Shown here: positions 3,946 through 64,000 of the stretch, one piece after another
Numbering within the stretch: the first letter of the stretch is position 1
Layout of the letters: each line of letters starts with the position of its first letter
NCBI GenBank assembly: GCA_964016885.1
Contig: OZ024755.1
Span: 27,404,001-27,468,000, forward strand
Direction of reading: 5' to 3'
Length of the DNA stretch: 64,000 nucleotides
DNA from: Eledone cirrhosa
Lineage: Eukaryota
The notes under the pieces: model-generated
The model's input: only the letters and a program-made list of their open reading frames with translations
Told to the model about the DNA's origin: nothing
The model's database searches: none
Program-made: the position numbers and the translations under genes

Positions 3946-4128
3946 AGGAACCAGTAAGACCCCGACGGCTGAGCTCAAGCCGTTTCAGTCCAGAATTAGC
4001 CGTCGAAACGGCTTGAGCTCAGCCGTCGGGGTCTTACTGGTTCCTATTACCCACTCTACTACCCCAAGTATTGAGTACTTTGGTGCGTTATGGTCCACCT
4101 GGTTCCTGACCACATTTCCTTCGTTTTA
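3946..4128 (+). mobile_element. Penelope-like/retrozyme cassette family D, head-to-head foldback in (TA)n
   Basis: about 42-bp perfect inverted arm; contains hammerhead 3' half GAAA-CGGC..GCCG-TC; flanked by TA tracts. Confidence 0.7.
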
Positions 4129-4230
4129 TATATATATATATATATATATATATATATATATATATATATATATATATATATATATATATATATATATATA
4201 TATATAGTAGTGAAAGAATATATATATATA

Positions 4231-4312
4231 TTGGATCGTCAAGTATGAAATTTGTAGAAATTTGTTGTTTTTTTTCTACAAAATTCTACACGTTTCATAC
4301 TTTATGACCCAA
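4231..4312. mobile_element. tiny Tc1/mariner-type MITE
   Basis: imperfect TIR TTGGATCGTCAAGTATGAAA / TTTCATACTTTATGACCCAA flanked by TA. Confidence 0.6.
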
Positions 4313-4421
4313 TATATATATACTGTATGTGTATTTAAAGGGTAAACAGAAATAACAACACAATCGGTACAGTATATGGAAGGAATATATTAGGTTAACG
4401 CTTGAAATAGCAGGAAGGGGG

Positions 4422-4457
4422 TCTTAACGTTTCGGACGCTAGTCCTTCATCAGAAGA
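4422..4457 (-). ncRNA. minimal hammerhead ribozyme (family A)
   Basis: minus strand TCTT-CTGATGA-a-GGAC tagc GTCC-GAAA-CG-TT-AAGA; palindromic stem III. Confidence 0.85.
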
Positions 4458-4859
4458 AATAATTAGGAATAAGAGAGATTCAAGGGACGGGTGGGGTGGA
4501 ATTGGAAAAAATAACCGGAGAAAAGATTTGAAGGTACTAGGGTGGGAGTGAAAAATAGACGGGTGAGAAGAAGAAGGTGGTGTAAGAAGATTATAGTAGA
4601 GTAAAAGTGATAGAGAGTCGTGGTATATTTAAATGCAAGTAGCAAAGAAAAATTTCAGTTATACGAAAAAATTTCCTGGTTCAAATTCAGGTAAACTCCG
4701 GATTTATATCCAGTTTTAGAGTGAAAATCCAATTTGAAAATACAACGAATTTGAGAGGTCCACGCAGAGAGAGAGAGAGAGAGAGAGAGAGAGAGAGAGA
4801 GAGAGAGAGAGAGAGAGAGAGGGATAGAGAGAGAGAGAGAGAGAGAGGGTGTATGATAA

Positions 4860-5121
4860 ACAAATGACGTTCCTTTTCTCTCTCTATCTATGTACATCTC
4901 TTTCGCTTGGCGCTCTCCCTCCATCACCCCCCTCTCTCTCTATATATAGATGAGGGTGGCGTCGTAACTTTCTGTCTATCTACTTCTTTCTGTCACCTCG
5001 AAAACACACAATGTTCCCTTTTCTCTCTCTATCTATGTACATAGCTTTCGCTTGGCGGTCTCCCTCTCTATATAAAAAGAACGTGACGGACGGATATACA
5101 GTGCTCTTATTATAATATAGA
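4860..5121 (-). mobile_element. possible Helitron 5' end
   Basis: minus strand A|TCTATATTATAATAAGAG followed by TCCG repeats, typical of non-autonomous Helitron starts; no 3' end found. Confidence 0.4.
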
Positions 5122-5479
5122 TTATCAAAGATAAATGTGGATAGGTACAATTTCCATATTCTAATAACAATCTTGACAGAAAATATTTATTCTACGTTTC
5201 ACGCCAAACATCAAACAATCATCCACGTCATAACTTCGCACATAATAATTCCATATAAAATGATTCTGTATCTATTAATTTTTAATTATTAGTTTTCCCC
5301 AGAAAGAAAATTGCAAAAATGAAAATTCTTTTGAAACGACAATTTCTAATAGTTTTTAGAATGTAATCATATACACAACATCTCTACTTTGGAACAGAAA
5401 AGTGGTACTTCGAAATAGACACATTTGTTTGGGTGTATGTGTATATATATATATATATATATATATATATATATATATT

Positions 5480-5612
5480 AAAAACTCCAGGACCCGGACG
5501 GCTGAGCTCCATCCGTTTCGACAGCTAGCCAGAGCTCAGCCGTCGGGGGTCCTGAATTTTTTCATATTACCCACTCTACTACCCCAAGTATCGAGTACTC
5601 TGGTGGGTAATG
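5480..5612 (+). mobile_element. family D cassette, foldback
   Basis: inverted CAGGACCCGGACGGCTGAGCTC / GAGCTCAGCCGTCGGGGGTCCTG; homologous to 3946-4128. Confidence 0.65.
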
Positions 5613-6097
5613 GTCTAGCTGCTTTTTACTACCTCCAATCTGATACATATATATATATATATATATATATGTCTGCTGGACGCTCGAGCAGAAGGACGTG
5701 TGCTTTTTCCTGCCGGCAGCATATCACAAAATCGAATATCATCTGAGGATACCATTCTCATAACAACAACAAATGCATGAATTACATCTTGATTACAACC
5801 GGGGTCTTCTGAAACTAACAAAGTCAATCTGTAAACGCAGAAGTGAATATTTCAAAAAACGTTGCAACCGGAGGAAGACAGGAAGACGATAGTTTGGTTC
5901 GTGGAAACGTTCCCTGACAAAGAACGGGAAAAAACGAATATAATACGTCATTATTTGAACCACCTAATAGAATATTAGTCTACGACTTCTTTTATACCAT
6001 AAACGTGGTTTTGTCTTTGCGTGTAATTGTTTTTCACCGCTCCAAATAATGACGTATTAATAAATGGAAACTATATTTATAAAACCATAATTATTTT

Positions 6098-6155
6098 ATT
6101 ATATATATTTCAAGGGCAACCAAGGCAAATTTTGGTGCGCTTTCATCAGATAAAA
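6098..6155 (-). ncRNA. hammerhead ribozyme motif (family C)
   Basis: minus CTGATGA-aagcgcACCAA aatttgcc TTGGTtgccctt-GAAA-TATA-TA. Confidence 0.6.
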
Positions 6156-6433
6156 TACAAAATTTGTTTTATAAATGTTGACATACCCGCAGAAAAACAA
6201 CCTTGACGGTTGGAGGTTCGCTGGATATATATATATATATATATATATATTTTTTTTTTTTTTTTTTTTTTTTAATTATATTTTTAATTATTTTTATTAT
6301 ATTTTTATTTTTATTTTTATTTATTATATTTTTTGTCTTTATTTGTTAATTTTTCATTCGCACCGTTTCCTTTCGCTATATGTCTCTCCACCACTCCCCT
6401 ACACACCTTTTGAACTCTGTTCCCACACACTTC

Positions 6434-6470
6434 TCACCTGAAGAAGAGCTTATGCCCGAAACGTCGTCCC
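6434..6470 (+). ncRNA. minimal hammerhead motif (family A-like)
   Basis: CTGAAGA-a-GAGC ttat GCCC-GAAA-CG-TC; one stem II mismatch. Confidence 0.65.
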
Positions 6471-61621: not shown

Positions 61622-61855
61622 ATATATATATATATATATATATATATATATATATATATATATATATATATATATATTAAAATTTAGGCAAAAATACTAT
61701 ATATTCTCGCCTCTTCTCAAGTTCCAACAAAAAGCAGCAGGGAGGTACTGTCCCAATGAGAGCCATCAGCTCGAAATACGTATAGGCAGTTATCCCTCGC
61801 TGCATCTGCAGGAATCCGCAAGACGGCTCTGACCGACTGCCTTTATATGGACTGT

Positions 61856-61950
61856 ACCCTTTGATAAGTTCAGCTAGATTCACGACGTTCTAATACTGGT
61901 GACTTAGTTCGGATCTAGCTGTCGAAACGGCCGGAGCTCAGCCATCCTGA
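61856..61950 (+). ncRNA. full-length but decayed family D hammerhead
   Basis: TTGATAA (CTGATGA-like)-gt t CAGCTAGAT...ATCTAGCTG-tc-GAAA-CGGC..GCCA-TC; 9-bp perfect stem II. Confidence 0.55.
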
Positions 61951-62109
61951 CTCTTTTCCTATCACCCACTCTACTATCTTAAGTATTGAGTACTCTGGTG
62001 CGTTATGGTCCAACTGGTATCTTACCACACCTTCTTTGTTTATATATATATATATATATATATATATATATACCAGAGTACTCAATACTTAGGATAGTAT
62101 ATATATATA

Positions 62110-62265
62110 TAGGAGTAGGAAGCTGTCATTCCCTGACGTTATCTCTAGGGATACGGGAATCAGTAGACAGGACCTGGGGGCGGCGATGGGGGACAGGGAA
62201 TTCTGGGGCATGAGAGTGAGATCCATCATCTCGACAGTAGTCGACGAATGATGATGATGATGATG
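62110..62265 (+). pseudogene. RTE-like LINE 3' end with (TGA)n tail
   Basis: KLSFPDVISRDTGISRQDLGAAMGDREFW followed by TGA repeats. Confidence 0.65.
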
Positions 62266-62599
62266 ATATATATCATATTATCTTCACCTGGGCGGCTGAA
62301 TTCTCATGGGATTAAATAACAGTAGATAGTGTTCACATAACAATAGATTTGACTTGTCTGATTGCATCTGTATCTGTGTTACATGTTACTAGTGACACAC
62401 ACACACACACACGCACACGCACACACACACACACACACACACACACACACACACACACACACTGGCGCATGAATCAGACACAAGTGTCCAGGATTTCTTA
62501 TCAATCTTCTGCTTACTTACTCGTTATTGAGACGAGAATGTTGGGAATTATTTTAAAATGCGAACAATTTTTAAACTCTAAACAAATTACTTTTATAGT

Positions 62600-62795
62600 T
62601 ACAGATTTGCGGTCGTGCCCTTGGCAGCGGAGACTCCTGGCATCCTTGGCCCTAGGGCTACCTCTCTACTCACCTCCAAGGCGCTGAGCTGGCCAGCTGC
62701 AGGTGTGATCCTCGCGAGATGGAATGGCTCTTCCAGCGCATCTCCCTTACTATCCTCCGGGGAAACGCCTTCTCCATTCTGTTCGCCGGGGCTGC
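62600..62795 (+). pseudogene. CRE-clade non-LTR retrotransposon C-terminus (restriction-like endonuclease region), frameshifted
   Basis: VPLAAETPGILGPRA... then DPREMEWLFQRISLTILRGNAFSIL, matching the P.A.ET.G..G / QR.S..IQRGNA motif. Confidence 0.8.
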
Positions 62796-62976
62796 GGGAA
62801 GGCCGGCGCGTGGGACCCCATTTGCTCACAATACAGAGAGATGGGGGAGGGCGGGAGAGATGGAGGCGATGACGGTGGGAGTTCGGTAGATCATGTGATA
62901 ATTTCATGTTACAGCTTGGAATTTTACGGTCTGTTGAACATCGTCCTTGAAACATTTTTGTTTACTTCCTTTGTCC

Positions 62977-63105
62977 TTTTACTCCACGTGTACGCTCACT
63001 TTTACTCCACGTGTACGCTCACATTTACTCCACGTGTACGCTCACTTTTACTCCACGTGTACGCTCACTTTTACTCCACGTGTACGCTCACTTTTACTCT
63101 ACATG
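62977..63105. repeat. about 5.5 x 23-bp tandem repeat TTTTACTCCACGTGTACGCTCAC
   Basis: direct repeats without spacers. Confidence 0.9.
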
Positions 63106-63408
63106 TAAGCCCACTGTAGATGAGGGGTTCTCTAACTTTATGGGTCACTGCCCCTCTCACGGCCACGTAATACCCTCAGCGCCCCCACCACTATTTCAAG
63201 AGAGAACCTGCCTACACACAAATTGTTAATAATATATAATAATTAATATCGTTAATTTATATATAATAAATGATATAATATATATTGTTATTCTTTGGGA
63301 GGGTCATGTTGCCAATAAAAACACACGCACCTGTGGGTTTTCACTTTAATTTATTATAAATTTCCGGCTGGTTGGTTGGTTCGATAACTGGAAGGTTGTT
63401 TATATATT

Positions 63409-63451
63409 GTTAAAGCTCTTTCGTCACACATTCTGTGACCTCCTCAGTGAC
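63409..63451 (-). ncRNA. hammerhead ribozyme (family F), left arm
   Basis: GTCA-CTGAGGA-g-GTCACA gaatg TGTGAC-GAAA-GAGC-TT-TAAC. Confidence 0.82.
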
Positions 63452-63584
63452 TAGATTTTTTATTTTATGTGTCTCGCCTTTGTTCTGTCCTACACTATCT
63501 TGTTTTTGTGTGATGTGTGTTGTGTGCTTAGTTTGCGCATGCGTTACATCCGGGTGTGTGTGTGACACACAAAATAAAAACCTA

Positions 63585-63627
63585 GTCACTGAGGAGTTCA
63601 CAGAATGTGTGACGAAAGAGCTTTGAC
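63585..63627 (+). ncRNA. hammerhead ribozyme (family F), right arm
   Basis: GTCA-CTGAGGA-Gt TCACA gaatg TGTGAC-GAAA-GAGC-TT-TGAC. Confidence 0.85.
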
Positions 63628-64000
63628 AATATATAAACAACTTTCCGGTTATCGAACCAACTAACCAACCGGAAATTTATAAAAAATTGAAGTAAAATCT
63701 GCGGGTGCGTGTGTTTTTATTGGCAACATGACCCTCCCAAAGTATAGCAATATCGGTTTCAACACACGTTTTCAGATAAGAGATCTTGCAAAAGAAATTC
63801 AAAAACGAATATAATATATACTATGTATAAATAAATATTATATTTATAAATCTCCACTACGGTAACCCTTCTACCTTTGTTTTGTTTTCATTTTCGTTTC
63901 TCTCAATTTTCACTTTTCTCCTATTTCTCACTCACTTCCTACCTCGAGATTTCCCATCTGCATTGTTGTGGCTTTCTAAACTACATATTTTAAATATTAT

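Follow-up and report, generated by a model that had tools for sequence, protein, structure and literature searches.

The window, by which we mean the whole 64,000-nucleotide stretch analysed here (Eledone cirrhosa contig OZ024755.1; G000:C15:27404001-27468000), lies within a 3.0-Gb genome and is rich in microsatellites. It also carries a short interspersed element (SINE), which we take to be octopus-like. Distributed along the window are inverted pairs of arms, or foldbacks, built from the 3' ends of elements that we assign to the Penelope-like elements (PLEs). The first-pass annotation had listed 12 of these loci as ribozyme cassettes integrated in head-to-head pairs, and self-comparison of the window sorted them into six families, A to F (Table 1). 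As set out below, the pairs are probably 5'-truncated PLE insertions into (TA)n targets, in which both cut ends would have primed on one RNA.

Orientation and frequency of the inverted pairs

Arm polarity was derived from the hammerhead cores in families A, B, C, D and F, and also from the reverse transcriptase (RT)-endonuclease open reading frame (ORF) of long copies in families A and E. At all 12 loci the left arm is antisense and the right arm sense, in agreement with the head-to-head polarity with outward 3' ends that had been annotated. The polarity at 61057, originally called as tentative, proved right because the ORF of long family-E copies gives it. Most of the annotated positions stand as well; three starts were misplaced and lie at 28442, 60166 and 61014. 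The AT-rich or TA flanks that had been assigned to the pairs are lacking at the right arm of locus 60355.

Families A-D, F and H were mapped onto 664 kb of contiguous DNA, consisting of 600 kb fetched for this purpose and the window, which together contain 81 local foldbacks of all kinds. Among neighbours of the same family that lie on opposite strands at most 40 bp apart, 41 are head-to-head and three tail-to-tail (two-sided p 1.6e-9), so that polarity is far from random. The window holds 12 of the former and one of the latter, leaving 29 versus two outside it. A TA run separates the arms in two of the three tail-to-tail cases. Four more family-C pairs with wider gaps, each containing a palindrome, are also head-to-head, and the same polarity was found for three wider family-F pairs and one family-C pair whose gap has no clear palindrome.

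The proposal that foldbacks are a routine product of integration holds for family A, where 60 of 70 tail matches taken in position order are in inverted pairs, and for family D, with pairs at 20 of 30 loci, but not for family B, in which only 6 of 28 loci are head-to-head and direct tandems predominate. The 70 family-A matches are made up of 53 called foldbacks and 17 uncalled matches, the latter being seven long copies that proved to be inverted (two of which belong to one insertion) and 10 single arms. Nine of 10 long family-A loci are inverted. An inverted arm was present in 24 of 33 family-E loci, a biased frequency as seven of these loci were picked because their listing showed pairs. Counts of arm geometry, here and below, are based on samples of loci rather than on a genome-wide census; loci L001-L030, obtained in a family-B search with a palindromic, and hence biased, query, were left out of them.

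Ends, template and junctions of the arms

As a rule, one arm of a pair stops at a fixed short site and its partner at a fixed tail site located further 3'. Counted from the ribozyme cut, the short end is at +17 to +20 and the tail end at +99 in family A, and at ~+11 to +28 and +86, respectively, in family D; in family E the two ends are 42-46 nt apart. One short and one tail end were found in 20/20 family-A pairs of the contiguous DNA, in 20/20 family-D pairs among 30 loci (19 by script, L167, with an internal deletion, being added by hand reading) and, among 33 family-E loci, in 21/21 pairs whose outer ends are both visible. Neither short/short nor tail/tail combinations occur among these 61 pairs. 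In the 53 called family-A foldbacks the partner arm ends at +20 in 46, and there is one tail/tail exception. This end asymmetry and the shared template described next, both of which had escaped the first-pass annotation, carry the mechanistic weight.

The two arms of a locus are more alike than arms of different loci: divergence is 3.3% within and 7.6% between loci, the former value being the lower one at 73 of 76 loci. The two arms carry an identical three-site haplotype at 71 of 74 loci, against 18.1 expected, and three haplotypes seen only once each were matched in both arms. Rare variants were observed 90 times in one arm only and five times in both; later homogenisation has therefore been small, and gene conversion was rejected as the origin of arm identity. 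Length behaves in the same manner, in that the arms of a locus are either both short or both long. The length-class tables, tallied by hand, are 93/2/0/9 for family A (Fisher p 2e-11) and 10/2/2/9 for family E (p 0.003). All nine long tail arms of family A have long partners, as opposed to two of the 95 short tail arms, and L256 is one more both-long case beyond the table.

These results bear on the possibility that both target ends prime but on two RNAs held by a dimer, or that the second end copies the DNA made first. No displacement on the RNA would then be needed, the protein of the PLE PAc is a predicted dimer (PMC11167929), and subfamilies active at different times could match variants without a shared molecule. 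Two free RNAs, however, should mix length classes and generate the short/short and tail/tail pairs that are absent from the 61 scored, and would have to account for the matched single-occurrence haplotypes, while tail-arm DNA as a template cannot yield a longer short-end arm without kilobase resection. We regard this possibility as quite improbable.

The 5' ends of the arms also have a limit, at ~-45 in family A, -47 in D and -201 in E (counted from the short end); 94 of 98 family-A short-end arms end within -46. In these three families the limit coincides with an initiator-like motif and a TATA-like box lies 26-33 nt upstream of it, from which we infer a putative promoter in the pseudo-long terminal repeat (pLTR) that would give a short RNA.

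The annotated arms of unequal length with a variable junction were confirmed: 98 family-A foldbacks have 88 distinct junctions. Inversion points differ among foldbacks without being evenly spread, as they pile up just inside the fixed 5' limit. The short-end arm extends further 5' in 52 foldbacks, the tail arm in 36, and both equally far in 10, and each arm often contains sequence absent from its partner. The tail arm starts beyond the short site in six family-A foldbacks (five short/tail and one tail/tail), and in the five short/tail pairs the arms are fully disjoint and have no sequence in common. Long pairs are lopsided by up to 2.6 kb, with either arm being the longer one (-2897 versus -248 and -2175 versus -264 in family E; -3029 versus -761 in family A). 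The tabulation of junction microhomology that had been suggested was carried out on a set of 96 sampled junctions that leaves out L120 and L070. Inserted bases, some of them copied from nearby element sequence, are present at 37; the 59 insertion-free junctions have 0, 1, 2 and at least 3 nt of microhomology in 18, 20, 7 and 14 cases, respectively. The last class is enriched about fivefold over the 4% expected. Altogether, 55 of the 96 junctions are blunt or contain inserted bases, and the junctions are of the kind left by end joining.

The main rival explanation is that priming occurs once, after which the first complementary DNA (cDNA), or an antisense RNA, primes itself to form a hairpin, and the endonuclease trims one tail at the short site. 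Such a fold-back predicts both common variants and a common length class, agrees with the microhomology enrichment and with junctions that use the ribozyme's own stem (L072), and is the published preferred reading of palindromes at head-to-head junctions (PMC3846280), the tail being ascribed to endonuclease resolution in PMC8557442. The 55 junctions that are unpaired or carry inserted bases argue against it, as do the lopsided pairs, for which it would need loops of 1-2.6 kb without homology. Moreover, a unique 5' stretch is found more often on the short-end arm (52 versus 36) and five pairs are disjoint, so that trimming would have had to hit the first-made arm at some loci and the second at others. 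Nor would an antisense template be expected to give a 5' limit that falls at a promoter-like motif in sense orientation. Taken together, we consider fold-back with later trimming unlikely.

Spread of a few foldback masters as fixed palindromic units, similar to MITEs (miniature inverted-repeat transposable elements) or as re-retrotransposed hairpins, is already largely refuted and very improbable. Ten repeat junctions do occur among the 98 of family A, and L271 and L294 share a junction in family E. The 98 comprise 88 distinct junctions, though, recurring junctions fall at microhomologies, and one recurrent family-E junction has its short and tail ends swapped between L277 and L286. The first-pass annotation, too, excluded terminal inverted repeats of MITEs, on the ground that the inversion point differs per locus. 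In addition, one arm has a unique tail, so that the ends are not terminal inverted repeats, and arms run into RT ORFs.

Equally remote is an origin as chimeric reads or assembly artefacts. No read or contig bridged a window junction with 31 nt on each side (that at 34076 was tested), and the best-matching read runs may come from the assembly's own sample. Nevertheless, the arms differ at 46 of 76 loci (mean 3.3%), no palindrome extends past the ends of the element into unique flank, and the fixed asymmetry is family-specific. Strand-switching joints of families C and F are also present, at family level (90% likeness), in raw short reads from another individual.

Paralogous empty sites were recovered for one of 96 loci and contain a plain TA run (5-53 nt). 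Creation of the TA runs by the insertion is unsupported, since this sole informative locus shows a pre-existing run.

Identity of the elements

Families A and E are PLEs, as traced to their predicted RT-endonuclease ORFs; ORF tracing covered these two, and families B, C, D and F are filed with the PLEs on hammerhead, tail and target. The family-A protein has no Pfam match. It has GIY-YIG-like and RT motifs, resembles the C-terminal half of the family-E protein (E 1e-05) and has 835 relatives scoring below 1e-30. Its features are a C-terminal GIY-YIG-like domain with RWR for RWK, DKT, a CxCX5C linker, absence of CC inside the core (no CCHH), CxxC and CxH near the end, and a (TA)n target, which together fit the description of the Hydra clade in PMC8557442. 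The order at L261 is a tailed copy in inverted orientation, a direct but truncated copy, an open 719-amino acid ORF and a short 3' end; positions 3378-5735 of this locus (G000:C1:11225501-11235500) hold an apparently intact Hydra-type PLE, with its 719 residues counted from the first Met, in the canonical partial-tandem layout.

The family-E protein matches Pfam RVT_1 (4.9e-15) and GIY-YIG (2.8e-05), both above cut-off. Of the features described for the Neptune or Nematis clade (GxKF, DKG, a pair of GIY-YIG-core cysteines and a linker Zn-finger), GPKF, DKG and core cysteines are present, and the linker departs from CX2-5CxxC. The family is young: of 1105 candidates 40 were scored, and all 40 are identical over 131 nt. 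L289:1860-4115 (G000:C4:191619821-191625974) is a copy with a 752-residue open frame and, C-terminally, a GIY-YIG domain, copies being 97-100% alike. Family F is older, in line with its abundance (query window 63244-63898) in contigs of a second species, where C and E are nearly absent at 90% likeness.

Putative hammerhead ribozymes were identified by core motif in families A (a variant), B, C, D and F, and none was recognisable in family E. Among the 150 of 360 Rfam matches listed there was no hammerhead, only microRNA-like noise, and folding of three hammerheads gave non-significant z-scores, no better than those of shuffles. The family-A hammerhead has a core of the U3-A8 type, a variant described in PMC4209133, with long stems II and III. 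Since this core lies ~85 nt upstream of the cut, short arms contain just the 3' half of the ribozyme. The term "ribozyme cassette" is thus only partly apt, given the half hammerheads of family-A arms, the arms at 22210 that lie past the cut and the lack of a hammerhead at 61057. The unit is the PLE 3' end (pLTR) rather than a ribozyme cassette, because the ribozyme-less family E behaves alike.

Family A is very abundant: one 37-nt tail motif has 16,801 exact matches in the genome, and the reversed control none. A 47-nt stretch of its 3' untranslated region (L066, L081, L087), ~620-670 nt upstream of the ribozyme cut, resembles the abundant SINE's 3' end (~80-85% alike), and perhaps represents an old captured fragment or a common origin. 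The SINE itself occurs as an inverted pair, 3' ends apparently outward, at G000:C15 ~27589830-27590018, and other SINE pairs are variously oriented. A short conserved stretch common to the D and A tails (window 10036-10100 and 4066-4124) is possibly an RT-binding element. At L146 (G000:C1:70860716-70863811) a family-A foldback, flanked by TA on both sides, is nested in a family-B foldback, precisely at the junction of the latter. Family B itself is a hammerhead-bearing tandem unit of ~310 nt that resembles retrozymes; a 20-copy array of a related 310-nt unit is located at G000:C15 ~27285400-27291400, at least 57 kb upstream of the window start region. L186-L189 (G000:C28:30771734-30785101) contain tandem arrays, in several blocks, of a 78-nt unit that is in essence the family-D hammerhead.

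Table 1. Arms of the mapped pairs, and of one single arm, in window positions
Family	Span	Start as first annotated	Antisense (left) arm	Sense (right) arm	Remarks
A, Hydra-type PLE 3' end	3944-4125	3946	short end, 3944-3986	tail, 3984-4125	3-nt junction microhomology; TA runs on either side
A, divergent subfamily	5479-5640	5480	short end, to 5527	tail, 5528-5640	blunt junction
D	10036-10205	10033	tail, 10036-~10164	short end, ~10162-10205	hammerhead core mutated or incomplete
B, retrozyme-like ~310-nt unit	13436-13816	13445	short end, 13436-13618	tail, 13620-13816	full minimal hammerhead core in antisense arm
B	22216-22505	22210	tail, 22216-22379	short end, 22391-22505	both arms begin 3' of ribozyme cut site
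C	28442-28708	28530	tail, 28442-28596	short end, 28597-28708	hammerhead core at 28602
A	34076-34286	34076	tail, 34076-34208	short end, 34227-34286	18 extra nt at junction, copied from element sequence
A	38282-38424		short end, 38282-38321	tail, 38342-38424	inserted repeats between arms; minimal arm overlap
A	46458-46621	46459	short end, 46458-46519	tail, 46520-46621	both arms contain sequence missing from partner
A, subfamily	49158-49367	49155	tail, 49158-49303	short end, 49299-49367	
C	60166-60530	60355	tail, 60166-60442	60443-60530	hammerhead core at 60353 in antisense arm; sense arm stops short of core
E, young PLE with RT and C-terminal GIY-YIG	61014-61622	61057	tail, 61014-61260	short end, 61449-61622	junction region duplicated between arms; no recognisable hammerhead
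A, subfamily, single tail arm	61850-62040			tail (+ strand)	long enough for whole hammerhead; 28-nt inverted tail fragment at 62072-62099, past the TA run 3' of the arm
F	63282-63790	63293	short end, 63282-63560	tail, 63564 to at least 63790	hammerhead core at 63589; arms ~90% alike, older

The pair at 38282-38424 is additional to the 12 annotated loci. Other hammerhead-bearing repeat families are also present in the window, mostly as single arms, in four groups: 4324-4511, 14571-14795 and 46138-46346; 5800-6057, 11095-11179, 55198-55489 and 57912-58102; ~6420-6560; and 60556-60790. Family H is seldom paired (two pairs among 19 arms). Local inverted repeats outside the mapped PLE families are located at 52797-52950 and at 11333-11407, 12372-12545.

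Proposed two-ended priming and known systems

We propose the following route. The (TA)n target would receive a double-strand cut, after which the two target ends would prime on the same RNA, one of them at its short site, the other at its tail site. Where the two cDNAs overlap, one would displace the other; each would run to the RNA 5' end or truncate independently, and the cDNA ends would be linked by host end joining. Pairs of the common short kind would stem from a short RNA started at the promoter inside the 3' pLTR. We consider it likely that both target ends prime, and probable, with somewhat less confidence, that they do so on a single RNA. The in vitro activities of PAc (Poseidon, Anolis) are consistent with parts of this route: both target strands are cut and extended, and uncleaved RNA serves as template with two internal start sites whose spacing equals the tail (PMC11167929).

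Several points weigh against the proposal. PAc shows no difference in start site between strands (PMC11167929), whereas the proposal assigns one site to each end, and for the present elements the mechanism is deduced from sequence. For arms that overlap, strand displacement or repeated use of the RNA would be needed, both hypothetical for a PLE RT, and a single folded-back cDNA would also give the common variants and length class. The promoter is proposed from motif spacing. Target-site duplications are unreadable in (TA)n. The tail/tail pair L070 and an arm of L258 that ends at -43 break the end rule, 10 of the 70 family-A tail matches are single arms, and family B consists mostly of direct tandems. 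Finally, the 5' ends of the two family-A arms are correlated (Spearman 0.40), as fold-back would predict; the common 5' limit and length class also explain this correlation.

The twin-priming-like scheme of the first-pass annotation, in which both break ends prime, thus gains support from the two fixed ends, the sequence private to each arm and the five disjoint pairs, but not in its L1 form. In both systems, L1 twin priming being the model of Ostertag and Kazazian 2001 (see also 10.1101/2024.12.14.628481), both break ends would prime on one RNA and the cDNAs are joined in inverted orientation. In L1, twin-primed insertions reportedly make up a minority, the second site varies and the two cDNAs do not overlap. 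Here, in contrast, the second site has a fixed position and pairs make up the main product; their arms mostly cover one and the same RNA stretch, which sets these pairs apart and results in an inverted duplication, and only the five disjoint short/tail pairs among the 98 have arms that do not overlap.

That inverted segments occur in PLE insertions was correctly taken as established: head-to-head is described as the most frequent PLE arrangement and explained by self-priming on an antisense template (PMC3846280), and an inverted 5'-truncated copy, a one-sided tail and a (TA)n bias are reported in PMC8557442, where the origin of tandem and inverted PLE structures is called undefined. The elements described here share with canonical endonuclease-positive (EN+) PLEs the head-to-head inverted copy, the tail at one end, partial pLTR tandems, microsatellite targets and putative hammerheads in pLTRs, L261 having the textbook layout of PMC8557442 (see also PMC3846280). 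They differ from the published descriptions in that the head-to-head pair is the majority product of very abundant families, most inserts comprise the last 150-250 nt only, and the tails of families A, D and E measure 42-82 nt instead of 30-40. Family A has the RT and endonuclease motifs and the (TA)n target of the Hydra clade, whereas its full unit of ~3.5 kb, with a long 3' untranslated region, exceeds the <3 kb reported (PMC8557442), and its hammerhead, of the U3-A8 type with long stems II and III, also sets it apart. As in PAc, two fixed sites are separated by the tail, and arms run through the ribozyme cut site, as if copied from uncleaved RNA; in the main text of PMC11167929 the two sites are related neither to the opposite ends of a single insertion nor to inverted copies.

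Non-LTR retrozymes (10.64898/2026.07.22.740005; PMC4209133) resemble the hammerhead tandem unit of family B and the 78-nt tandem arrays related to family D, and hammerheads on opposite strands 100-700 bp apart were noted in Schistosoma (PMC4209133). The foldbacks, however, are pairs of monomers rather than tandems, and also occur in the hammerhead-less family E. In the mainly open literature searched, we found no publication that puts forward, for PLEs, priming from both ends on one RNA; the supplements of PMC8557442 and PMC11167929 may list these families or such a model. The architecture is not new; the families are new and very abundant, and the proposed mechanism is specific, directly testable and apparently unpublished.

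A broader form of the proposal, which we judge to be evenly balanced, is that programmed two-ended priming is the default mode of PLE integration: a dimeric RT-endonuclease would cut both strands and engage one target end per fixed start site on a single RNA, the cDNAs would displace one another, and no second strand would be made by the RT before host joining. If true, a single cycle would account for the inverted copy and the tail at one end only, as well as for the many short hairpins derived from pLTR-promoter RNAs, throughout the PLE clades and with or without a ribozyme. Recent insertions number in the tens of thousands in this genome, and the models can be told apart by their ends, variants and lengths; apparently intact young ORFs from two clades (L261 and L289) are available as well. 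As a by-product, the genome carries many short hairpins. Because PLE RTs form the sister group of telomerase, a distinct two-ended integration route would matter beyond this genome.

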